Below, piece by piece: positions 1 through 34,326 of a DNA stretch of 35,705 nt (the stretch's first letter is position 1; each line of letters opens with the position of its first letter). The translations under genes were made by a program, and so were the position numbers. Source of the DNA: Lachnospiraceae bacterium (GTDB taxonomy: Bacteria > Bacillota > Clostridia > Lachnospirales > Lachnospiraceae). Below the pieces are notes generated by a model that was given only the letters and a program-made list of their open reading frames with translations, had not been told where the DNA came from and did not search any database. Where the stretch lies: positions 1-35,705 of the forward strand of contig JAILCX010000070.1 of assembly GCA_024690205.1 (NCBI GenBank), read 5' to 3'.

Positions 1-279
1 ATTTTTCATTATAAAATCCCAACGTGCAGATTCCGGGATATAGAAAACATTGTCTTTCGTGTAGAAAGGCATCATTTCAAGGAATCCCTCTTGTCCATTT
101 GCTTTCATATGTTCTCGATGCTCATTAAATCTGTCATTTGCATATTTCAAAAAAATCATAGAAAGCACAACGTGTTTGTACTCGGAAGGCTCAACTTTCC
201 CTCTTAACTTATTTGCAGCATCCCATAGTGTCTGTTCGATAGGTTTCTGTTCTTTTTCCTGCTTACTGGTTTTGGCCAT
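1..279 (-). CDS. hsdM: Type I restriction-modification methyltransferase subunit HsdM, N-terminal part. The 5' end of the gene is in the window and the gene continues past the left edge.
   Basis: The reverse complement of 1-279 translates from an ATG at 277-279 as MAKTSKQEKEQKPIEQTLWDAANKLRGKVEPSEYKHVVLSMIFLKYANDRFNEHREHMKANGQEGFLEMMPFYTKDNVFYIPESARWDFIMKN. The LWDAANKLRG...EYKHVVLSMIFLKY block is the characteristic HsdM N-terminal domain. An AAGGGA-type RBS lies upstream. Not in the ORF track because it is truncated. Confidence 0.7.
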   Translation of the reverse strand, partial: MAKTSKQEKEQKPIEQTLWDAANKLRGKVEPSEYKHVVLSMIFLKYANDRFNEHREHMKANGQEGFLEMMPFYTKDNVFYIPESARWDFIMKN

Positions 280-545
280 TTTCTTATCCCTTTCATAGTG
301 GAATTATGTATAATTAAGCAAAAGTCGGTACAAGACAACGATATATGCCTGACCGACTCACTCTGAATACCCTCATAATCCAGACTTATCTCGCTATAAT
401 CTTGCAGTTTAAGTCACAATTAACACTTTATTATACTATAACAGTGGCTATTTTATCAATGTGAGAGAGGCTATATCACTGTATTTTCTGCCTTTTCTCA
501 ATAATACATCCTGTATAGTCCAATATACTGTACTCAAAGGACGGT

Positions 546-1400
546 TTATTCTATAACAGCACTCACAACTGCCTTCAGATCCTCTTCGCCGGAGTTCACT
601 TCCGGGACGAACAACCTTGCTCGTCCGTCAGAGCATACCTTTCGGATGCCCTCAATGAAGATATCTCTGTCTACCTTATTCGGAAAGTAGGTATCGAGCG
701 TACCGCAATGAGCAACCCACCTACCATTCTCCGCCTGTTTCTTACCCCATATGTGAATGCCTTTTACCACGTTCTGATATGGGACAATTGTGTCGATGGC
801 GGCCAAATACTTATCCGCATCGAAACAGTCTGTCTTCAGATGCTCTGCCGTTACCAACTGTGGGAAATCCAATACAACACCAAGGTCTGCCCCTGTCTCC
901 TGTATCCGGCTGCAAAGCAAAGCTATCTCTTTACCCTTGCCTACAATAAACCGACCACCTCTATACACGGCTCCTGCCCTGTTTTCGACCACGATTTCCG
1001 TGTCAGGGTATGTTTTATGGATAATCTGTTCAAAAACCCTATATCGGTCAAGGAACTGGTCTATATCACAATAATCGTTAAACGGAGGATGAATCTCGAC
1101 AACCGAAGGTGCAGCATGGCTCTCGGTCAGTTTGATAACGAATCCAGCAAACTGCTCTGCCCACTCTGTAGTCTTCCATAACTGCGGAACTCCATCCTTA
1201 TTTGCATCACAGAGCGCAGGGAACTGTCTCACCAAGTCTGATGACAGATTTCTCTTGCCATAACTGTATTCAGTATGGAGTGAGTACTTCGGCACATCCT
1301 CTATTCGATCCTTATCGAGATGTCCGGCAAGTTCTATTAATTCCGGGGTTATCTCTTTCGGATACTCTGTATTTCCGTATTGAACGAATCTGAAAACCAT
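546..1400 (-). CDS. Hypothetical TIM-barrel protein that resembles AP-endonuclease family 2 / xylose-isomerase-like fold (Nfo/UvdE-like). Probably co-transcribed downstream of GmrSD.
   Basis: The 360-aa ORF-track entry overlaps the GmrSD 3' end. The realistic start is the ATG at 1398-1400 (MVFRFVQYG...), which has a GGAG RBS 7 nt upstream and lies 10 nt after the GmrSD stop. Motifs VEIHPPF, VVENRAG (cf. Nfo ...LENTAG), VLDFPQL..EH and GIHIWGKK resemble the metal-ligand blocks of Nfo/UvdE TIM-barrel nucleases. The assignment is by eye only. Confidence 0.4.
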   Translation of the reverse strand: MVFRFVQYGNTEYPKEITPELIELAGHLDKDRIEDVPKYSLHTEYSYGKRNLSSDLVRQFPALCDANKDGVPQLWKTTEWAEQFAGFVIKLTESHAAPSVVEIHPPFNDYCDIDQFLDRYRVFEQIIHKTYPDTEIVVENRAGAVYRGGRFIVGKGKEIALLCSRIQETGADLGVVLDFPQLVTAEHLKTDCFDADKYLAAIDTIVPYQNVVKGIHIWGKKQAENGRWVAHCGTLDTYFPNKVDRDIFIEGIRKVCSDGRARLFVPEVNSGEEDLKAVVSAVIE

Positions 1401-1410
1401 AATCACTCCA

Positions 1411-4248
1411 TCAATCATCGCCCTTTCGGACAACGGTAAATCCACGTCTTTCAAAGAAACGGACTGCTGTATCTCCGCTAACATATTCTGACTTGTCAAT
1501 TTCCGTTCCGTAAGCCTCTTTCCATGCCATGCCCTTGATATGCTTTGCTGGAAGTTCCTCCCCATTATAAACAAGCCATATACTTGAAGGCTCTGGGTAC
1601 TCTGGTCTTTCTTCCAAAAAGCGATCAATAGCTGCCTGAACGTCCTCTGCTGTCACACCCTTCCATGTAGGTTTGGGATTGCATCCAGCCTCTTCACCTA
1701 CAGAATTCAATGCCTCAACCAGGGCATCATACTTGGCAACCATCCACTCATATATTTCTTTCTGTTTTTCGGGATTAAAGATATCCGCCTCTTTTTTGTA
1801 CAATATGCGTTTTGCTACGCTGTTTTCACGGCTCGAATACCAATCAAGCTTATCTCCGAATTTGCTTTCTATGTCTATTTTCTTATCCTCAAGTCTTGCA
1901 AAAGCCTCCGGGGTATATACATACAGAAGTATCGTGATAAACTTACTTCGTGTAATGGTGAACGATATATGGAAGTCTTCAGCTATCGTGCTGATATCAT
2001 ACCAATTCGTGCCTCTTGGATTCCTATATGCGATGTCAGATCCTCGACCATTTTCTCGACAATACTCAACAAAGTCTGTCCAAAACTTTCTCCTTTTATC
2101 ACGAAGGGTTACATCATCATTTGAAGGGTCAAAAATATTTGAAGGATCATCCACCGTTTCACTTTCGGAAGGAGCCGGGAGTTCTGGTGGGATTTCTCGT
2201 CCGTCCACCGCAAACTGAACATAAACTAATCTGTCCATCTGTTCCTGACTAAAGCTAATCTCCCACCTCTGTTCCATGAAACGAAGGAGCTTTTTACTGC
2301 GATCATATATCTTCTTTGCATCCCAATCCTGCTCCTTGGCCACTTCTATCTCGGAATGGGATCCGTTCTCATATCCTCGTCTTCCCTTGTCATTAGAGGT
2401 TTTCTTGTCATAAAAACTTACATTCTGCAAGCTCGAATTAATGCTTTGTGATAACGGGAGGAGATTTCCTAATGCTCCGGCAAGCATCTCTTTCTCATCA
2501 TCATCAAACTGCCTAAACTGATTGCGCCAATAGTAATTAGTATGAGTTTGCGGAAATATGTGTTCAATAGAGACTTTATCCTTCTCATTCTTTGAAAACA
2601 TCTCCCAGCTAATCTTATCAATGTTATTCTTCTTGGCTAACGTATACTCGTACTCATAAAGGAAATACTTAAGATTATATCCCCAGCCATAAAAACCACT
2701 ATGATTGGAAAAGTTCTTCTCTATCTTTGTAACGAAGTTCGGAACGGCATATTCAATGTTCGCATCTGCTTTTTCGCTCAAATCCTTTATCAAATCATCT
2801 ATGCTGATTTCATCAAAATAAAGGCTCCTTGTACAACGATAGTATTCACTGCTCTGATATGATGCGTTGAATCCGCCAAGCCTGAAACAGATGAATATGA
2901 ACCTCTCGATTGCCTTAAACAGTTCTGATCTCTTTTCCGGGGATATCTTCCTTTTGCTGATAGCCACCATGACAAGCGGTCTGAAGTATCCTATTCCCAC
3001 TCTTTGAAGTCGATCCACCCAAATTCTCTCATCGGGCGTAAGGTGTTCACTTGTCATAGGGAAAAAGGTATCATACCAGTATTGTGCCATATCCATGAGG
3101 CTCAATACATAATCAGATATCTCCGTAGGCTGCAGTTTGCTTAAAACCAGCGGTTCTACTTCAACTTCATCATCATCTTGATCATCATCGTCAACATCGG
3201 ACAAAACTTGTGAATCATCTTCTGTTGTAACGGACACCTTTTCAAAGATATTCTTGGCCGAAAACTTACTTAACAAGAATTTGATGTAGTCATCGCCTTT
3301 TCTTCTCGAATATGAATAATACGAGATCCAATGCGCACGAAGGAAATCATCATCTGAAAGCGGCCATTCCTCATTTTTGCCAAGATGATAGTACACCTCT
3401 TTCCAGGCATCATTGATTTTCTTCCTCAAATTGGCCTTTTCAAGTTCATCAAAAGCATCATTCGAATAAAGCGTTGTCAAATAGATAAGGCGGTTCTTCA
3501 ACAATTCGAGATTAGTCAGCTTTTTACCACGATTGTTCATGGTTTCAAATGCCACAAACACATCATAATCATCCGATATTTCATGGATGTTAAACATCAT
3601 CTGCTGGGTCAGTTTTTTATATAAGACAGAAATACCCGCCATCTTCTCCTGCTCATAAAATGACTCGAGATTACTTCTGAAGAAGTTTTTTGCATTTTTC
3701 AGATTTTTTGTGTAGTAAGTTTCATCAACGCTACCAGAATAAGGCTCATTAAAAACACGATAGCGAAGATAATCTGCGCTGGGATTATCAACCTCGTAGC
3801 CAAACAGGTATGTAGTAATAAGATTGTTTGGAGGTCTGTGCCTGCAGATGTATTTTTCGACAACTGAACTCAAAGTATCAAAACCGAGCAAAATCTTATC
3901 ATCTGATAAATCCTTGTTCTCCGGCAGTTCACGGACAAAGCATACCAGTTCGTTTATCAGAATCACAAAAGTGGTCAGCCTCTGCTGCCCATCAACAATG
4001 TGAAATGCCTCATAATCACCACTATCGATTAGCCAAGTATCCGTACCCCATCCGCTTGTATCCTTTTTGGATAATGCCTTTAAGGATAGCATCCCTGTAT
4101 AGTGATACTTATCTTCTTGTAGATTCACAAGGTCATCCCAAAAATCTATCAATTGAGACTGCTGCCATGCATATCCTCTCTGATAGTCCGGGATACGAAA
4201 TACCCTGTGTGAAAACACTTTTGATAGTTGCTGTAGCTCGTTTGCCAT
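1411..4248 (-). CDS. GmrSD-family type IV (modification-dependent) restriction endonuclease: DUF262 (DGQQR) plus DUF1524 (His-Me finger), with a C-terminal DUF4268-like extension.
   Basis: The N-terminal region has IPDYQRGYAW and HIVDGQQRLTTF (the DUF262 DGQQR motif). The middle region has SIEHIFPQ ... LGNLLPLSQSINSS (DUF1524 HNH-like motifs). The tail has RRKFWTDFVEYCRENG (DUF4268-like). Start is re-set to ATG 4246-4248 (MANELQQLSKVF), which has a GGAGG RBS 5 nt upstream. The ORF-track 5' extension to 4305 overlaps the upstream gene. Confidence 0.85.
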   Translation of the reverse strand: MANELQQLSKVFSHRVFRIPDYQRGYAWQQSQLIDFWDDLVNLQEDKYHYTGMLSLKALSKKDTSGWGTDTWLIDSGDYEAFHIVDGQQRLTTFVILINELVCFVRELPENKDLSDDKILLGFDTLSSVVEKYICRHRPPNNLITTYLFGYEVDNPSADYLRYRVFNEPYSGSVDETYYTKNLKNAKNFFRSNLESFYEQEKMAGISVLYKKLTQQMMFNIHEISDDYDVFVAFETMNNRGKKLTNLELLKNRLIYLTTLYSNDAFDELEKANLRKKINDAWKEVYYHLGKNEEWPLSDDDFLRAHWISYYSYSRRKGDDYIKFLLSKFSAKNIFEKVSVTTEDDSQVLSDVDDDDQDDDEVEVEPLVLSKLQPTEISDYVLSLMDMAQYWYDTFFPMTSEHLTPDERIWVDRLQRVGIGYFRPLVMVAISKRKISPEKRSELFKAIERFIFICFRLGGFNASYQSSEYYRCTRSLYFDEISIDDLIKDLSEKADANIEYAVPNFVTKIEKNFSNHSGFYGWGYNLKYFLYEYEYTLAKKNNIDKISWEMFSKNEKDKVSIEHIFPQTHTNYYWRNQFRQFDDDEKEMLAGALGNLLPLSQSINSSLQNVSFYDKKTSNDKGRRGYENGSHSEIEVAKEQDWDAKKIYDRSKKLLRFMEQRWEISFSQEQMDRLVYVQFAVDGREIPPELPAPSESETVDDPSNIFDPSNDDVTLRDKRRKFWTDFVEYCRENGRGSDIAYRNPRGTNWYDISTIAEDFHISFTITRSKFITILLYVYTPEAFARLEDKKIDIESKFGDKLDWYSSRENSVAKRILYKKEADIFNPEKQKEIYEWMVAKYDALVEALNSVGEEAGCNPKPTWKGVTAEDVQAAIDRFLEERPEYPEPSSIWLVYNGEELPAKHIKGMAWKEAYGTEIDKSEYVSGDTAVRFFERRGFTVVRKGDD

Positions 4249-4259
4249 AATGCCTCCGT

Positions 4260-4619
4260 CTAATTCATCAACTCTTGCATCCGTTTGATGATCATATTGA
4301 ACCATCGCATTGACTCTTCATCCCGGATGCTCTCACCCATAGCCCAATGATTGTAATACCGCCACTGCGAGAATATGGCGGATCCCAATAGCTGAATATC
4401 GTCAATGGAATCGATGACCTTCTCCAGGGCATCTGGATTCCTAAAAGCGTCATGACCGTACTTCTCCTCGAAGGCATGACCGCAGTCCATGTCAAAGCCG
4501 AGGTCTCTGAAACCATCTCCGATGGCGGGATCATCGACTATCTGAATATCCGGCACGTTGCTATCATTCAGCATATCCGCAAATTTGCTTATGTACTCGC
4601 TTATCTTTTTATTAACCAT
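4260..4619 (-). CDS. Hypothetical 119-aa protein, first gene of the GmrSD operon.
   Basis: ORF MVNKKISEYISKFADMLND... with its stop 11 nt before the GmrSD start. No recognisable motif and a weak RBS. Confidence 0.5.
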   Translation of the reverse strand: MVNKKISEYISKFADMLNDSNVPDIQIVDDPAIGDGFRDLGFDMDCGHAFEEKYGHDAFRNPDALEKVIDSIDDIQLLGSAIFSQWRYYNHWAMGESIRDEESMRWFNMIIKRMQELMN

Positions 4620-4705
4620 TCTGTATTCCCAACCCCGATTTTTTAACTATCCTATATTCTCAACGAGGTTTTTTAACCATCTTGTATTCCCGACCTTTTT
4701 TACAC
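4611..4705. repeat. Imperfect direct repeat with two ~33-bp copies about 61 bp apart. It overlaps the start codon of the 119-aa gene at the islet/backbone junction.
   Basis: Copy 1 (4611-4648) is TTAACCATTCTGTATTCCCAACCCCGATTTTTTAAC. Copy 2 (4670-4704) is TTAACCATCTTGTATTCCCGACCTTTTTTAC. TTTTTTAACYATC also recurs at 4640 and 4669. Confidence 0.45.
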
Positions 4706-9031: not shown

Positions 9032-10156
9032 TCAGCCCATGAAGTAGTAGATAAGGGCAAACAGTGCTATCACGATTATGATCGTAAGTATTACCTTTAT
9101 TGCAGATATCGGAGTCTTTCCGTATACCTTACCGGTCTGTCCGTTAACAGCAAACTGGTATATCTTGTCCTTATACTTGTAGCTTGAGATCCATACCGGC
9201 AAAAGAAGATATTTAAACGTCACGGCTGAAAAAGAGCTGTTAACGTTTAAGCCCCTTACATGATCGGCATGATTTTCATTAAGTATCTTCGATGTTATGG
9301 AAGAATTGATCTTTCCCTTGATCGATGCCTTGGCTTTTTCCCAGGCATCCTTGACACCTACGGAATACTTCTCGGCACCGAAACCTGCTACGTATTCAGG
9401 CTTATATATCTTATTATCCGCAGTATCATAAGGTTCTATACCGCGAAGCAGATTTTTGTCATGCTGCTCGGTCCCGCATACAAGTTCATCGTCAAAGAAC
9501 TCGTCATAGTTTCCTCTTGTATTGTACCAATCGGTAACAGTGACCTCACTATCTCCCTTCTTGACCTTGCGGTCCTTACCGTACTGTGCGGTGTAGGAAG
9601 ATGCGGTTTGTGTATCGAATGTCCAATAGGGAAGATACATACCCTTGAAATTCTTGGGCTTAGCGCTTTCCTTGGCAGCCTTCGGGCAGTAGAATTTATG
9701 CTTTATCCAGTTAATGAATCTGTTTCCGGCTTCTTTCTGGTCTATTTTGAAAGGTATAACGCCTCCCGGAGCCATCGAGTCATTTCCACCGGCTTCGGTA
9801 ACCTGATTAGATCCGCAATAAGGGCAAACTGATGAGATAACCTGTGCATCATAGATGGATTCAGCTCCACAGCTTTTACAGATTATGGTCTTTGTTGCGG
9901 TTCCCCAATCATGATTGGCTGTTGATTCAGCATCTTCTAAAGTTATCTCGGCTGCAGATGTGCTTCCCCCGTTTTGGGAAGAAGGCTTATCTTCTTTATT
10001 GCTGACAGCATTTTTTATCTCTTCGGTATGTCCACAATAAGGACACTTTAGACCCCCGGTCACAGGATCAAAATCCATAGTTCCGTCACATGCGGGACAC
10101 TTTCTGTCAGTTTCTTTTAGCGTATTTACGATATTTGAATCGAATTCGTCGGGCAT
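9032..10156 (-). CDS. Membrane-anchored double zinc-ribbon protein (C-terminal TM helix). Partner of the upstream SPFH protein. Possibly YdjG-like.
   Basis: Start re-set to ATG 10154-10156 (MPDEFDSNIV), with an AAGGAG RBS 8 nt upstream. The ORF-track M is an alternative codon. Two CxxC...CxxC ribbons (CPACDG..CPYCGH and CKSCGA..CPYCGS). C-terminal TM is AIKVILTIIIVIALFALIYYF. Confidence 0.6.
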   Translation of the reverse strand: MPDEFDSNIVNTLKETDRKCPACDGTMDFDPVTGGLKCPYCGHTEEIKNAVSNKEDKPSSQNGGSTSAAEITLEDAESTANHDWGTATKTIICKSCGAESIYDAQVISSVCPYCGSNQVTEAGGNDSMAPGGVIPFKIDQKEAGNRFINWIKHKFYCPKAAKESAKPKNFKGMYLPYWTFDTQTASSYTAQYGKDRKVKKGDSEVTVTDWYNTRGNYDEFFDDELVCGTEQHDKNLLRGIEPYDTADNKIYKPEYVAGFGAEKYSVGVKDAWEKAKASIKGKINSSITSKILNENHADHVRGLNVNSSFSAVTFKYLLLPVWISSYKYKDKIYQFAVNGQTGKVYGKTPISAIKVILTIIIVIALFALIYYFMG

Positions 10157-10230
10157 ATCAAAACTCCTTTTAAAACCGCGAGAGGATGTCTCCACCCTCT
10201 CGCTTTGTTACCGTTATTCGGAATTATTTC

Positions 10231-11541
10231 TTATTGAGCATCAGAGTCGTCAAAAACATCTCCGCACTCAGGGCAGAACTTCGGAGGATGTGTAGGATCC
10301 TCGGGAGTCCATCCGCACTTGTCACACTTGTATAAAGGTGCACCGGCGGGTTTCTTTGCTCCGCACTCAGAGCAGAACTTGCCGAGATTTCCGGTCTTTC
10401 CGCATGAGCATGTCCATCCCTCCTCGGGTACCGGTTGAGGCTTTCCGCACTCGGCACAGAACTTACCGGTGTTTCCGGTCTTTCCGCACGAACATGTCCA
10501 TCCCTCTTCCTTGGGTGCTCCTACTACGGGAGCAGGAATAGGTGTTCCCTGCGCCTGCTGGTATACGGGTGCGTTTGCACCTGCCATGTTAGCCATGTTC
10601 ATTCCGGCAAAAGCCATAACAGGGCCGGCAGCGGTATTTGAAGCAGCTGCCTGCATAGCAGAAGCTGTAGCTCCGGTCATCATACCCTGTCCGAGAGTCG
10701 GATTTGAAAGGGCAGCTGCTCTCTGGAGCTCTTTTATCATGTTCTCGTCTTCTTCGGATGCCTTTAATGTGTTGACACCGAATGAAACGATCTCTATTCC
10801 TCTTAAGTCTCTCCACTGATCTGAGAGCTCTTCGTTAAGTGCGTTTGCAAGTTCCTTTGTATGTCCGGGAACGGCTGAATATCTGATACCCATCTCTGAA
10901 ATTCTTGCAAATGCAGGCTGAAGAGCTGTAAGAAGCTCTGTCTTTAACTGAGAATCGATCTTGTCTCTTGTATATTCATCAGTTACATTGGCACATACAT
11001 TTGTATAGAAAAGGATGGGATTGGTGATCCTGTATGAGTACTCACCGTTACATCTTATTGAAATGTCAACGTCAAGTCCTATACGGGCATCAACGACTCT
11101 GAAAGGAACGGGATTAGCCGTACCGTATTTGTTTCCGATGATCTCCTTGGTGTTGAAGAAATAGATCCTCTGATCCTTTCCCGTATCTCCGCCAAAGGTA
11201 ATCCTCTTACCCATTGTCTTGAATGACTCGAGGATGCTTGTTCCGAGATTTCCTGAAAAGATGGAAGGCTCGGTAGACGTATCATAAGTAAATTCACCGG
11301 GCTCAGCACAAAGCTCAACGACCTTACCCTGATCTACTATGATCATGCACTGTCCGTCGTTAACTGCGATCACCGAACCGTTAGTAATGATATTATCCTG
11401 TCCTTTGTTGTTCCCCTTTGTTCTCTTTTGGCCTTTGGTAACAAGAACGTTCGCATCCATTGAATCACAGTAGAAATACTCTTTCCACTGATCTGAAAGC
11501 TGCGAGCTGACTCCGCCAACCACTGCACTAATAAGTCCCAT
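10231..11541 (-). CDS. SPFH/band-7 (stomatin-prohibitin-flotillin) family protein with a C-terminal array of zinc ribbons (COG4260 / YdjI-like).
   Basis: 436 aa with a GGAGGTG RBS. The globular N-terminal 300 aa has the architecture typical of PF13421-type SPFH proteins. The C-terminus has three tandem GWTCSCGKTGNxGKFCxECG ribbons plus CDKCG..CPECG. Confidence 0.65.
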   Translation of the reverse strand: MGLISAVVGGVSSQLSDQWKEYFYCDSMDANVLVTKGQKRTKGNNKGQDNIITNGSVIAVNDGQCMIIVDQGKVVELCAEPGEFTYDTSTEPSIFSGNLGTSILESFKTMGKRITFGGDTGKDQRIYFFNTKEIIGNKYGTANPVPFRVVDARIGLDVDISIRCNGEYSYRITNPILFYTNVCANVTDEYTRDKIDSQLKTELLTALQPAFARISEMGIRYSAVPGHTKELANALNEELSDQWRDLRGIEIVSFGVNTLKASEEDENMIKELQRAAALSNPTLGQGMMTGATASAMQAAASNTAAGPVMAFAGMNMANMAGANAPVYQQAQGTPIPAPVVGAPKEEGWTCSCGKTGNTGKFCAECGKPQPVPEEGWTCSCGKTGNLGKFCSECGAKKPAGAPLYKCDKCGWTPEDPTHPPKFCPECGDVFDDSDAQ

Positions 11542-29768: not shown

Positions 29769-29850
29769 AAGTCAACGGGGACGGTTCTCTTTGAACCTGT
29801 TCTCATTGGGTTCAATGGGTAAGTCAAAGAGAACCGTTCCCGTTGAGCCT
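29769..29850 (+). repeat. GGGGACGGTTCTC-core repeat, locus 2. Convergent inverted pair able to form a ~23-bp-stem hairpin with a 29-nt loop.
   Basis: Arm 1 (29772-29794) is TCAACGGGGACGGTTCTCTTTGA. Arm 2 (29824-29846) is TCAAAGAGAACCGTTCCCGTTGA, which is the reverse complement with 1 mismatch. The loop contains a small nested hairpin GAACC-N11-GGTTC. Confidence 0.75.
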
Positions 29851-29887
29851 GAACCCACCATTGTGTTTTAGTAGAAAGAGGTGCCGA

Positions 29888-31534
29888 ATGACCAAAAGAC
29901 TCACAGCCGTTTTACTAACGATCAGCCTGGCATTTAGCAGCACGGCATGTTCTGCCGAAGAAGTTAAAGGCAAGGCGGACTCCGCTAAAAATTCCATAGA
30001 AAAAGCTGCCGACGAAGCGGCCGATACGATCGGAAAAACAGCATCTGACGTATCCGAGGTTGTTAGTTCCAAAGCAGCCGAGGCTGTCGGATATGCTTCG
30101 GAATGGTACTCAAATATCGATACGGCAAAGTTTAAGCAGGGCTGGAATTACTCGGTTGAGTTCCTGGGCGAAAAGTATTCGGAAGCGGTAGACAGTGAAT
30201 ATATCAGATCCGTTGCGGAAAATATGGCAAAGATACGCTCCAACATGGAAAGCGCATCTTCCGCTCTCATAGATTCTGCAATCGACAAAGAACAGCTTGC
30301 AATGAAGTGGGCAACGGAAACCTATTCCGACGTTAAAGATGCAAGCCTTGAGATGATCGAAGAGAACTCTTATCTTAAGTACTTTTCGTCTGCTGATAAG
30401 GAAGCATCAAAGGAGGCCATGAACCTTCTTGTATCCTATTATGATTACGCCCGGCAGATGTCATCGCCCGTTGAACTTAAGGATTATATTGATGATTTCT
30501 GTGCCAAAGAAAGCGCTGATCTTAATGCCTTATATAAATCAGTTCTTAATGATCAGGAGCTTATAATTCCTGATGAGCAAATGCCCGGCACCATCGCCTA
30601 TATCACCGGCATATCGGACAAAATGCCCGGGGAAACTCAATCAAAATTCCTTTCCAAGGATTCCCTTTACGAACGCACGGTAAAATCCCTTAAGAAAAGA
30701 TATGAAGATAACAGTTTAAGTGAAAGCAAGGCTCCCACAGCGGCAGAGATAATCGCACTTGCTCAGTTGGCCGAGGAAGGAACCTTACAGCCTTCTGATT
30801 TTAACGTATCGGTATCAACACTCCTTTGCCCCAAATACGTTCTTAAACAGGCCTGCTATTCCGTTTCCGGAATGTCAGATTTTGATGATGTTGTTAATAT
30901 AGGTTCAAGTGTCTATTCCATACTGAAGGAAGCGGCATCCGATGGGCATATAGATACCGACGCTCTCAAAAAGGGGGATATGAAAACTGTTCTGGCTTCA
31001 TCCGACGGTTTTGTTGAAGGTTCGGTAAGTCAGTTTGTTATATCGGGATGCAGAGAAGGAAACTGGGGAGAATATATAAAAGATGATCCTTCCCTTTGTG
31101 CCGTGATCTCGGTTCTCGTCATTGATGGAGCAGTAATTGGATATGATCTTTGCCGCGGCGATATCACACTTGACGAATACGGAAACATGATGGCGGACAT
31201 GCTCTTTACGTCACTGCTTTCCCTTCCTACAAACGCGGTCGTTATCGCGCTTTTACCTTCTTTGTATATGACGGCTCTTGCAGGCTCCATGGCCGGCGTG
31301 ACTATGGTTGCTCTCGGATATGAAGATTCGGAAGCTGCAAAGAGCGCGATGCTTGATGTTGTAAACGGCGGAGGATTTGAGGCATTTGTTCCCGCAGGAA
31401 CTACCGAAGCCATAAGCGTAGCCAAAAGCAAGATAGAATCTCTAAGCATGAAAAACAAGATCTCATCATTTAAAGATACGATGATATCAACCACCAAAGA
31501 GGGATACATCAACATAGAAACGATCCCCGATTAA
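29888..31534 (+). CDS. Hypothetical 548-aa lipoprotein of unknown function.
   Basis: Start re-set to ATG 29888 (MTKRLTAVLLTISLAFSSTAC lipobox), with an AGAGGTG RBS. The ORF-track start is upstream. The C-terminal third contains hydrophobic/Gly-rich segments. No family recognised. Confidence 0.6.
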   Translation: MTKRLTAVLLTISLAFSSTACSAEEVKGKADSAKNSIEKAADEAADTIGKTASDVSEVVSSKAAEAVGYASEWYSNIDTAKFKQGWNYSVEFLGEKYSEAVDSEYIRSVAENMAKIRSNMESASSALIDSAIDKEQLAMKWATETYSDVKDASLEMIEENSYLKYFSSADKEASKEAMNLLVSYYDYARQMSSPVELKDYIDDFCAKESADLNALYKSVLNDQELIIPDEQMPGTIAYITGISDKMPGETQSKFLSKDSLYERTVKSLKKRYEDNSLSESKAPTAAEIIALAQLAEEGTLQPSDFNVSVSTLLCPKYVLKQACYSVSGMSDFDDVVNIGSSVYSILKEAASDGHIDTDALKKGDMKTVLASSDGFVEGSVSQFVISGCREGNWGEYIKDDPSLCAVISVLVIDGAVIGYDLCRGDITLDEYGNMMADMLFTSLLSLPTNAVVIALLPSLYMTALAGSMAGVTMVALGYEDSEAAKSAMLDVVNGGGFEAFVPAGTTEAISVAKSKIESLSMKNKISSFKDTMISTTKEGYINIETIPD

Positions 31535-32973: not shown

Positions 32974-34326
32974 TTATTCCTCCTTGTTTCCGCAATTACC
33001 GCAGAACTTCATTCCTTCAGCAAGTTCTGCTCCGCACTTGGAACATACTCTCTTTGTCGGTCCCACCGGAGTTCCGCAATTACCGCAGAATTTCATTCCG
33101 GCAGGTACCTCTTGTCCGCAGTTTGCACAGATAACCTTGGGAGGTTCTACATTGGCTCCGCATGAACCGCAGAACTTCATTCCGGCAGGTACCGTAGCTC
33201 CGCATACGGGACATGCAATGTTTCCGCCTGCTGCTCCCTGGGTAAAGAGATTGTTCATCATTGCTCCGGCAGACTGGCCTACTGAATTACCCATACCGAG
33301 CCCCAATCCTGCCTGCATGAACATAGCTCCATCTCCTTCGTTGGAAACGGCAGCCTTCATGATCTCTGCAGCTTCCTGTCTCGCCCAGCCGTTGTTTCCG
33401 TCTTGATCCCTTATCTTCATACGTTCGTAGTCAGCGTAAGCGCCCTGACCTGAAACATAACGGTCCTTTTCTGCGCCTTCACGCTCAAGGCCGTACTGTA
33501 CTCTGGTATCGAGTATCTCCTGTTCACGGTCAAATTCTCTTTCCTGACGAGACATCTTCATTTCGAGCATACGCTTCATGTAAGGATCATTATCAGGAAT
33601 CTGAATATTCTCTATATAGAAATTGATAAGCTCAAGGCCATACTCTGCAAGAACTTCGTTAAGAGGCGCTTTCAAAGAATCGGCAAGCGCCTTCTTTCTG
33701 TTAATAACAACGATAACCTCTTCATCACCGCCTGCAAGATAAGCTGCAAGTTCATCCGTTATGTTTTGCTTGAAAGCAGTCTTAAAGCTGTTTTTAACAG
33801 ACTCTTCGGTGATGTTTTCGGCTCTTCCTGGAGCAGTCTGAAGCGAGCCGCCATGTCCTCCGACGAGTTTTAAGAAGAACTGCTTAGAGTTGCTGACAGC
33901 AACGGTATATGCACCTCTTGCAGAAACAGTAAGGACAATACCTGATCTGGGATCTACAACCTTGATGGGATCGCTGGTTCCCCACTTCATCTCAAGGTGA
34001 TGGCCCTTGTTGATAAAATATACTTTACAGTTAAACGGACTCTCGCCTCCTGAAAGCATCTTTGAAAGGAACTTTGTAAGGAAAGGATAGTTCTCCGTTG
34101 TAAGAGTATACTTTCCCGAAGTAAAGACTTCTTCAATGATACCGTCCTTCATGAAGAGCGCTTCTTCATACTCGGCAACTATAAGCTGAGCACCGTTATT
34201 AAAATCTTCATTCGGAACCTTGTAACAGATCTCGCCGTTACGGGCGTTGTTCTTAATGACGCTTAAGATAGGATTTGAGGGTTTTTCGGAAGAATCCCCC
34301 AGAATTTTGTCTAAGCCAAAAGCCAT
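32974..34326 (-). CDS. SPFH/band-7 family protein with C-terminal tandem zinc ribbons (COG4260 / YdjI-like). Paralog of the gene at 10231-11541.
   Basis: AAGGGG RBS. Four C-terminal repeats of the type CPVCGATVPAGMKFCGSCG. Same overall architecture as the 10231-11541 protein. Confidence 0.65.
   Translation of the reverse strand: MAFGLDKILGDSSEKPSNPILSVIKNNARNGEICYKVPNEDFNNGAQLIVAEYEEALFMKDGIIEEVFTSGKYTLTTENYPFLTKFLSKMLSGGESPFNCKVYFINKGHHLEMKWGTSDPIKVVDPRSGIVLTVSARGAYTVAVSNSKQFFLKLVGGHGGSLQTAPGRAENITEESVKNSFKTAFKQNITDELAAYLAGGDEEVIVVINRKKALADSLKAPLNEVLAEYGLELINFYIENIQIPDNDPYMKRMLEMKMSRQEREFDREQEILDTRVQYGLEREGAEKDRYVSGQGAYADYERMKIRDQDGNNGWARQEAAEIMKAAVSNEGDGAMFMQAGLGLGMGNSVGQSAGAMMNNLFTQGAAGGNIACPVCGATVPAGMKFCGSCGANVEPPKVICANCGQEVPAGMKFCGNCGTPVGPTKRVCSKCGAELAEGMKFCGNCGNKEE

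Follow-up and report, generated by a model that had tools for sequence, protein, structure and literature searches.

A probable defence islet of independently mobile cassettes in a Lachnospiraceae bacterium, in which a GmrSD-DUF4268 restriction enzyme lies beside a rare Endonuclease-IV-like TIM-barrel protein

Restriction enzymes of the GmrSD family, including Eco94GmrSD, BrxU, and the SspE-type DUF262 + DUF1524 proteins, carry an N-terminal DUF262 domain with a DGQQR motif and a C-terminal DUF1524 domain. The fusion of GmrSD with DUF4268 has already been described, DUF4268 being the extra domain most often fused to GmrSD, and components of type I restriction-modification (R-M) systems are the most enriched neighbours of GmrSD (Machnicka et al. 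2015, PMC4619093); DUF4268 has itself been proposed as a substrate-recognition motif (bioRxiv 10.1101/2025.02.28.640651). The stretch of DNA considered here, hereafter the window, comprises 35,705 nucleotides (nt) from a Lachnospiraceae bacterium (GenBank assembly GCA_024690205.1, contig JAILCX010000070.1, positions 1 to 35,705 of the forward strand). Positions 1-4705 encode, on the minus strand, a 119-residue protein (orf119), a GmrSD-DUF4268 enzyme, a protein with the triosephosphate isomerase (TIM) barrel fold of Endonuclease IV (Endo IV), designated TIM284, and the start of the type I R-M gene hsdM (Table 1). The window enzyme matches the published architecture in its DUF262, DUF1524, and DUF4268 domains and its type I R-M neighbourhood (PMC4619093), whereas it differs from the GmrSD family in an additional C-terminal tail of ~95 amino acids (aa) and in being packed between two unrelated small genes. 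The original prediction proposed that orf119, GmrSD, and TIM284 possibly form one three-gene module of undescribed architecture. The reading favoured here, with a probability of roughly 0.6, is that positions 1-4705 are a defence islet of independently mobile cassettes without a dedicated three-component system, and that TIM284 would be a metal-dependent DNA phosphodiesterase. What is new here is the TIM family, together with its repeated association with nuclease-NTPases, whereas the GmrSD locus itself is of an already known kind; of the architecture proposed as undescribed, it is the repeated adjacency of TIM to nucleases that survives.

For TIM284, the nearest described enzyme is Endo IV (Nfo, APN1, and pE296R of African swine fever virus), to which it is 9-15% identical with no significant sequence or profile match; Endo IV is universal and serves a housekeeping role, whereas the TIM family is rare, mobile, and defence-linked. 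The most frequent neighbours of TIM genes, often within the same operon, are the nuclease-helicases Nhi and PDC-S41 (DUF2075, SLFN-group-3). DUF2075 is mentioned in a bioRxiv paper on nucleic-acid immunity conferred by a single enzyme (10.1101/776245), presumably the Nhi study. Unlike the PDC-S41/TIM pairs, the window contains no DUF2075 protein, and GmrSD takes that position. A precedent for an abasic-site (AP) endonuclease enhancing restriction, through conversion of abasic sites into breaks, is provided by base-excision restriction, known from the R.PabI family, and by the Brig glycosylases, mutations in E. coli nfo and xth being known to suppress R.PabI restriction (PMC10273834). One TIM locus (L006) resembles this arrangement in having an HhH-GPD glycosylase-like gene 6 nt upstream of TIM; in the R.PabI and Brig cases, however, the AP endonuclease is a host housekeeping enzyme whereas TIM is an island gene, and GmrSD is a phosphodiesterase and not a glycosylase. 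Lastly, the DUF692/MbnB metalloenzymes and the sugar epimerases act on peptides or sugars in biosynthetic operons, and no such context was seen for TIM.

Relatives were gathered for each gene separately, and neighbourhoods were compared at six GmrSD loci, about 30 TIM loci, and eight orf119 loci. Among the loci examined, the trio of orf119, GmrSD-DUF4268, and TIM occurs in the window only, and the orf119-TIM and GmrSD-TIM pairs are confined to sequences that share at least 92% nucleotide identity with the window. GmrSD relatives at 94%, 85%, 82%, and 56% amino acid identity have neither orf119 nor TIM where the flank is visible. The 94% relative (L037), whose gene is broken after residue 252, has IS3 and IS4 transposases upstream; the 85% relative (L033) is preceded by a Peptidase_M78 and DUF4411 pair; the 82% relative (L034) has nothing TIM-like within 146 nt past its stop codon; and the 56% relatives (L035/L036) have a betaine ATP-binding cassette (ABC) transporter on one side and a metallo-beta-lactamase-fold gene on the other. 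The reciprocal searches agree: tblastn with GmrSD, orf119, and hsdM against 18 TIM loci from genomes returned nothing, a search for the same three at the later TIM loci returned nothing except the near-identical L038, and an orf119 hidden Markov model (HMM) found no relative at the other TIM loci or at the GmrSD loci. Neither orf119 nor this GmrSD turned up at any of about 25 further TIM loci. The single-module proposal thus fails on neighbourhood conservation, with the trio confined to the window and the GmrSD relatives devoid of the flanking genes. As judged from these comparisons, the three genes do not form a conserved three-gene system, and their shared operon appears to be a matter of local history.

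The boundaries of homology are sharp. DNA homology of L033, L037, and L034 to the window (positions prefixed W) starts at W4257/4256, 8-9 nt ahead of the GmrSD ATG, and homology of the GmrSD relatives ends at W1414, at the GmrSD stop codon. Being bounded by its ribosome-binding site (RBS) and its stop codon, GmrSD therefore appears to move as a cassette of open reading frame (ORF) plus RBS. In L047-L049, W4854-4273 (96.6% nt identity) is joined directly to W1401-1225 (92% nt identity) with no GmrSD between them: a 97%-identical orf119 (P0121) is followed after 1 nt by the TIM start, the junction reading TAG-T-ATGGTTTTC (in full, ...GAGAAGTAG-T-ATGGTTTTCAGATTC), and the TIM gene is cut to 60 codons. 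The last four orf119 codons differ between the two arrangements (QELMN versus QELLEK). Because the GmrSD ORF with its RBS sits exactly between genes that abut elsewhere, the window trio would either have arisen by insertion of GmrSD or differ from L047-L049 by its precise loss. The orf119-TIM segment is the sole part common to the window and L047. A shared chromosomal site for orf119 in L047 was considered and rejected, as homology ends 36 nt inside the methyltransferase gene, past which L047 has a different sequence. The GmrSD-TIM junction, for its part, is held in common with L038 (95% nt identity), in which the GmrSD C-terminus is 99% identical and TIM breaks off after ~48 aa, with a tRNA_edit gene and an IS66 element next to it.

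The two junctions flanking the GmrSD ORF in the window (4243-4275 and 1393-1425) also resemble each other (GATGAATTAGACGGAGGCATTATGG versus GATGATTGATGGAGTGATTATGG); by eye, in a gapped alignment, ~20 of 25 aligned positions are equal, and each junction spans a stop codon, GGAG, and an ATG. This likeness could be what recombination left behind when the cassette was inserted, or could reflect mere RBS constraints; being gapped, it was flagged by no tool.

GmrSD-DUF4268 reads as an intact, single-polypeptide type IV (modification-dependent) restriction enzyme and, as a lone gene in its relatives, appears complete and self-sufficient. All three of its domains exceed their Pfam cut-offs: GmrSD_N (PF03235) with 105.6 bits (cut-off 33.2, E 5e-30), GmrSD_C (PF07510) with 63 bits (cut-off 23, E 3.5e-17), and DUF4268 (PF14088) with 83.4 bits (cut-off 27, E 2e-23). 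In the translation, the DGQQR motif is legible as IVDGQQRLTT and the His-Me finger residues as SIEHIFPQ ... NLLPLSQSINSSLQN. The PADLOC models HEC-06, Orf5, and SspE match the GmrSD part of the protein, and PDC-S11 matches the DUF4268 part. Together with the HsdM_N match described below, these scores bear out the predicted type IV enzyme in a defence islet beside a type I R-M gene. The C-terminal tail past DUF4268, which has no Pfam match and no PDB sequence match, is kept in the 82% (L034) and 99% (L038) relatives, while the alignment of the 56% relatives stops at residue 850; possibly the tail is a further domain that reads DNA or its modifications. An acidic low-complexity linker (DVDDDDQDDDEVEVE; window 3150-3215, residues ~345-365) separates GmrSD_N from GmrSD_C.

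TIM284 is, according to its predicted structure, a member of what appears to be a rare Endo-IV-like TIM-barrel family absent from curated models. The exact protein has no identical record in the databases; it has no match in Pfam, NCBIfam, PADLOC, or PHROGs, none to PF01261 or UvdE even at E <= 1, and neither it nor its family profile has a sequence relative in the PDB. One homologue (P0103) reaches 24.1 bits on PF01261 (E 3.3e-5), below the gathering cut-off of 31.1. The family comprises 885-1068 clusters at 90% identity, nearly all of 280-295 aa and labelled hypothetical, and 354 clusters at 50% identity among 1.84 billion proteins. Its genes were found at 18 loci among 185,579 species genomes, distributed over Clostridia, one metagenome-assembled genome (MAG) of Alphaproteobacteria, one Leptospirales MAG, and archaea. 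The AlphaFold2 (AF2) model is a TIM barrel (pLDDT 93.9, pTM 0.91) with the xylose-isomerase-like fold of Endo IV/AP_endonuc_2. The top three Foldseek matches are T. maritima Nfo (two entries) and E. coli Nfo (E 3.8e-7 to 6.9e-6, TM 0.50), and AP endonucleases rank first in both fold-search methods. The AP-endonuclease fold had been proposed from the blocks VVENRAG and VEIHPPF; both are present, no other parts of the family are as well conserved, and the model and the fold matches back the assignment. Across 61 sequences, down to 27% identity, the invariant polar residues are T43, E102, R141, D178, and H216, and at least 90% conservation is seen for H42, H104, E139, N140, Q181, H231, D258, and E267. 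From these, the nearly invariant H42, H104, E139, D178, H216, H231, and E267 constitute a candidate set of metal ligands.

TIM genes recur beside NTP-driven nucleases, often in translational coupling: Nhi-like/PDC-S41 proteins, a McrBC-like pair, a NERD-UvrD helicase, and, in the window, GmrSD. When three genes on each side were counted at 24 distinct loci, a SLFN-group-3/DUF2075 helicase was by far the commonest neighbour (9/24). Four of these helicases were scanned with PADLOC: those of L010, L021, and L041 match PDC-S41 at E 1e-244 to 1e-282, and that of L024 matched AbiO, PDC-S41, and Nhi weakly (E about 1e-12 to 1e-14). The helicase may precede TIM, with overlap or a 15-17 nt gap (L007, L016, L041, L054), precede it with an HRDC protein (L010, L012) or a NUDIX protein (L011) in between, follow it (L021), or converge upon it (L024). 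Because gene order around the pair varies in this way (at least five orders), the helicase-TIM link appears to have arisen or been kept more than once. By eye, the N-termini of the neighbouring DUF2075 helicases read like PD-(D/E)XK nucleases. The same pair of helix-turn-helix (HTH)-Peptidase_M78 and DUF4411 genes lies directly upstream of GmrSD in L033 (L033:104-1737) and of a PDC-S41-type helicase with TIM in L054 (L054:2354-3990); GmrSD and the PDC-S41-type helicase thus look like interchangeable occupants of a single slot in the island.

GajA/OLD-like (Gabija-like) ATPase-nucleases also lie near TIM in L004, L005, and L054; a NERD-UvrD helicase and a Cas3-like helicase lie beside it in L042; AbiH does so in L009, and a DpnII-MboI domain protein occurs in L017. 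A type I R-M system is found two genes downstream of TIM at P0008, and in the closest full-length relative (P0001, 88%) a MazE/AbrB-like gene of 65 aa overlaps TIM by 4 nt. On the Thermococcus barophilus plasmid pTBMP1 (NC_015471.1; L058:2303-7909), a 36%-identical TIM follows a DUF2357 protein, regarded as McrC-like, and a 958-aa protein whose motifs GLSGTGKT, LDEMNLA, and IIGTVNIDETT read as McrB-like; neighbour proteins of 958 and 563 aa have no PDB sequence match. Relatives of TIM at 80% and 76% (L019:8001-8858 and L052:398-1252), the nearest full-length ones after P0001, are situated in a siphovirus-type prophage tail module, just upstream of the tape-measure gene, a moron-like position. 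Seven TIM matches occur in IMG/VR contigs, and no homologue was found among 50,697 records of isolated phage genomes. This distribution fits a mobile, defence-linked gene whose product would act on nucleic acids. No literature linking the xylose-isomerase-like or Endo IV fold to anti-phage systems was found, nor any mention of PDC-S41.

Several family members are enlarged. P0167 and P0172 (about 600 aa) are fusions of TIM with DUF2797, a domain on which the literature that names it gave no useful information. The C-terminal domain of P0194 (574 aa) shows, by eye and unconfirmed, the motifs WN, QEV, DANE, and SDHAP typical of the ExoIII/APE1 fold, and has no PDB sequence match. P0224 (575 aa) has a 286-aa N-terminal extension and the substitutions H104C and E139A at putative ligands, and is possibly inactive.

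Under the favoured reading, GmrSD would, by homology to its family, cut DNA with modified bases through its DUF262 NTPase and DUF1524 His-Me nuclease; the family is marked by NTP-dependent cleavage limited to modified DNA (hmC or glucosyl-hmC). Whereas gene and domain content, the fold, the absence of trio conservation, and the neighbourhoods of the family are observed, for TIM we infer metal binding, a DNA substrate, and any cooperation with GmrSD: the protein would bind two or more metal ions and would introduce nicks or process DNA wherever a site is non-standard—abasic, modified, or with blocked ends—either adding a second lesion to phage DNA hit by the neighbouring nuclease or cleaning up the resulting ends. 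It would act as a portable accessory or second effector beside differing NTP-driven nucleases, and orf119 would merely happen to lie upstream. A more far-reaching and only tentative proposal is that TIM proteins are new, dedicated anti-phage endonucleases of Endo-IV-like type, serving as a plug-in second effector for Nhi-like/PDC-S41, McrBC-like, and GmrSD machines. A nuclease fold of the base-flipping repair type would then have been turned to a new use, the incision of modified or abasic sites specific to phages, and the window would be the first GmrSD-coupled example.

A number of points weigh against the favoured reading. The sample of loci is modest (about 30) and skewed to rumen and gut Firmicutes metagenomes. 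More than half of the TIM loci have no nuclease-NTPase partner, and at PDC-S41 loci at least TIM would be dispensable, because PADLOC lists PDC-S41 as a single-gene candidate. The TIM gene is decayed in L038:559-771, L047:1333-1515, L006:4369-5224, and L013:10001-10744: in two independent contexts it breaks off near codon 48-60, in L006 a frameshift is apparent, and in L013 the N-terminus is missing; such decay fits a non-essential passenger and suggests that TIM is dispensable or costly. The tight 10-11 nt spacing and shared strand of the trio still allow co-expression and a lineage-specific functional link. Finally, alignment of the TIM family with E. coli Nfo by hhalign is not significant (E 0.11-0.13 with the 30-sequence and 61-sequence profiles), nor is the global alignment of TIM284 with E. 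coli Nfo (z 1.5), and two metal-ligand positions of Endo IV appear to be altered. The trinuclear site of E. coli Endo IV is formed by H69, H109, E145, D179, H182, H216, D229, H231, and E261. In the register of the non-significant 61-sequence hhalign alignment (E 0.13), VVEIHPPF pairs with Nfo LLNFHPGS (H104/H109), IVVENRAG with AVIENTAG (E139/E145), VVLDFPQ with VCIDTCH (D178/D179, Q181/H182), and GIHIW with GMHLN (H216/H216). Residues H42, H231, and E267 of TIM lie at strand ends that presumably match those of Endo IV H69, H231, and E261, going by conservation and strand position. In this register H182 becomes Q181, and D229 appears by eye to become V229 at a position outside the hhalign alignment. 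Because Q181 replaces H182 and V229 appears to replace D229, the residues suggest that a two-metal site is more plausible than a full three-metal site and that a trinuclear centre is doubtful. TIM284 differs from Endo IV additionally in an N-terminal beta-rich segment (~95 aa) with a nearly invariant HTEY block.

The apparent loss of two third-metal ligand positions also lends itself to the main rival for TIM, a non-nuclease activity within the same superfamily, which we regard as unlikely. On this view TIM, as an enzyme of the xylose-isomerase-like superfamily, would serve as a metal-dependent isomerase, lyase, or oxidase, with a sugar, a nucleotide, or the sugar decoration of hypermodified phage DNA as its substrate. 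Sugar epimerases and isomerases, C-glycoside deglycosidases (DgpB/C), and MbnB/DUF692 proteins score within about one Z unit of Endo IV, and nucleotide hydrolases occur as neighbours or fusion partners: NUDIX in L011, HIT in L045, and a weak MazG-like N-terminus in P0100, a TIM fusion of 403 aa. An ADP-ribosylglycohydrolase gene is near TIM in two unrelated loci, pTBMP1 (L058) and L024. Against this, AP endonucleases come first in both fold searches, and where Endo IV has its two extra histidines, which simple epimerases are not known to have, the TIM family keeps residues as well: H104 according to the hhalign register and H42 from its position alone. The partners of TIM are, moreover, overwhelmingly DNA-targeting enzymes, and its neighbours include the DNA-repair-type HhH-GPD (L006) and HRDC (L010, L012) proteins.

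It is less probable still that GmrSD and TIM, perhaps together with orf119, constitute a genuine multi-component system specific to the lineage, in which GmrSD would cut modified phage DNA and the Endo-IV-like partner would convert or extend the damage or protect the host chromosome. The organisation of the window is what such a system would look like, the shared strand, the 10-11 nt spacers, and a GGAG for each gene suggesting co-translation, and the GmrSD-TIM junction is present in L038 as well. TIM also takes the same position repeatedly by other NTP-driven nucleases, with 3-17 nt gaps or overlaps at PDC-S41-type helicases and a place after the McrBC-like pair, and the M78 and DUF4411 genes precede both GmrSD (L033) and PDC-S41 with TIM (L054), as if in one slot. 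The comparison of loci nevertheless speaks against it: the 56-94% GmrSD relatives are without TIM wherever the flank is visible, L038 retains GmrSD with TIM destroyed next to it, GmrSD was detectable at the TIM loci of the window and its near-identical relative and at no further one, and orf119 is missing at all other TIM and GmrSD loci examined.

That TIM is instead a housekeeping DNA-repair gene of uvsE/nfo type, a functional analogue of nfo/uvdE placed by chance beside a defence gene, is highly improbable: Endo IV is its closest fold, the flanking backbone is ordinary, and its GC content at third codon positions (GC3; 0.48) lies within the backbone range of 0.41-0.48, but the window protein has no PF01261, UvdE, or NCBIfam match, the family is very rare (354 clusters) and scattered (18 loci), conserved housekeeping neighbours were never seen in the loci examined, the gene is truncated in close relatives, and its distribution over prophages, including the tail modules of close full-length relatives, a plasmid, and defence islands argues against any such role.

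The first gene of the trio, orf119, encodes a rare protein with no specific link to GmrSD. It is acidic (pI 4.5) and all-helical, with no usable match in Pfam, NCBIfam, PADLOC, or PHROGs, so that the Pfam check suggested for it and for TIM284 yielded nothing in either case; a fold search returned generic helix bundles only. The ORF is nonetheless real and conserved, as had been surmised, with 13 homologues in 5.8 billion clusters, down to 36% identity, and an HMM search over all six-frame ORFs of 45 loci found no remote relatives beyond the known ones. Relatives at 46-47% (P0128, P0130) directly follow genes for an LlaJI-type methylase, AAA_5, and RE_LlaJI at the edge of a prophage-like region, and the 36% relative sits amid small ORFs without known identity. 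In L028:2167-8363 and L029:139-3163, orf119 homologues begin 11-15 nt after such an LlaJI-type operon (DNA methylase, AAA_5, RE_LlaJI), and a prophage-like module then follows (M78/HTH repressor pair, DUF2800, VapE or Enc34). In all, orf119 is placed beside restriction genes in three contexts, too few cases for interpretation.

Three tandem units of ~30 nt precede orf119. They form one repeat family (D1), with 3 copies 78-85% identical to the reference and the coding-strand consensus GGTTGGGAATACAGGATGGTTAAAAAA. The last copy supplies the orf119 ATG, the first opens a 6-codon mini-ORF (MVKKPR), and the segment is kept at 96.6% nt identity in L047-L049. An array of operators or iterons is one possible reading of the repeats, a duplicated leader another.

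Read off the minus strand, orf119, GmrSD, and TIM284 are as tightly packed as originally described, with the correction that TIM284 has 284 rather than 285 residues. The spacers between the orf119 TAG and the GmrSD ATG (11 nt, ACGGAGGCATT) and between the GmrSD TGA and the TIM ATG (10 nt, TGGAGTGATT) each hold GGAG(G). The start codons agree with those of relatives: GmrSD begins MANELQQ as in L033 and L037, the TIM start M-x-F-x-F agrees with 29 homologues, and the orf119 homologue P0121 begins MVNKK. The adjoining hsdM is indeed present downstream, though not as part of the trio. Its start lies 266 nt beyond the TIM stop, behind a promoter-like TTGATA-18-TATAAT; because of this gap and near-consensus site, hsdM appears to be a separate transcription unit, although promoter-like sites of this kind show no enrichment versus shuffled sequence and the site is a consensus match only. 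The window covers only HsdM_N of the type I R-M system, the rest of hsdM and its operon lying outside; HsdM_N scores 69.2 bits (Pfam cut-off 24.5, E 7e-19), and the best match of hsdM to the PADLOC type I and type II methyltransferase models has E 1.2e-17.

On the other side, a 199-nt spacer separates orf119 from housekeeping genes for a U5-type RNA methyltransferase, PcrA, a GH9 cellulase, a Firmicute-type fructose-bisphosphatase (FBPase), and valyl-tRNA synthetase (ValRS). These genes point to a Firmicute host, and the sources of the homologues make a rumen or gut member of the Clostridia probable. The compositional contrast sought between islet and backbone did not materialise, as the GC3 values of the four genes (0.38-0.59) are not clearly separated from those of the backbone (0.41-0.48), nor are the genes by GC content; a flanking tRNA was sought at the islet and none was found. 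The backbone also encodes two paralogous SPFH/Band_7_1 proteins (window 10231-11541 and 32974-34326), the second with C-terminal double zinc ribbons, an adjacent ORF of 387 aa (9032-10195), and a 563-aa ORF (29843-31534), neither of these two ORFs with a Pfam match.

Table 1. Features of the islet, in window coordinates
Feature	Position	Strand	Remarks
Leader repeat, three tandem ~30-nt units	4608..4695	minus	TRF period 30, 2.9 copies, score 99
orf119	4619..4260	minus	119 aa
GmrSD-DUF4268	4248..1411	minus	945 aa
GmrSD_N (DUF262, ParB-like NTPase)	3487..4221	minus	aa 10-254, contains DGQQR
GmrSD_C (DUF1524, His-Me/HNH nuclease)	2281..2724	minus	aa 509-656
DUF4268 domain	1705..2094	minus	aa 719-848
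GmrSD C-terminal tail past DUF4268	1414..1701	minus	aa 850-945, ~95 aa
TIM284 (Endonuclease-IV-fold TIM barrel)	1400..546	minus	284 aa
Promoter-like site between TIM stop and hsdM start	459..430	minus	TTGATA-18-TATAAT, 11/12 consensus positions
hsdM start	279..1	minus	codons 1-93 within the window; remainder beyond the window edge

With the three-gene architecture set aside, there is no need to clone the trio as a unit, and the locus stands as a clear case of cassette exchange at the level of the ORF within a defence islet. The TIM family has no Pfam, NCBIfam, PADLOC, or PHROGs model; it has an AP-endonuclease fold and is strongly and repeatedly tied to anti-phage nucleases and prophages, and it could explain a partner often carried by single-gene candidates such as PDC-S41. 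If TIM proteins act on DNA in defence, repair-type lesion recognition would be linked to immunity.

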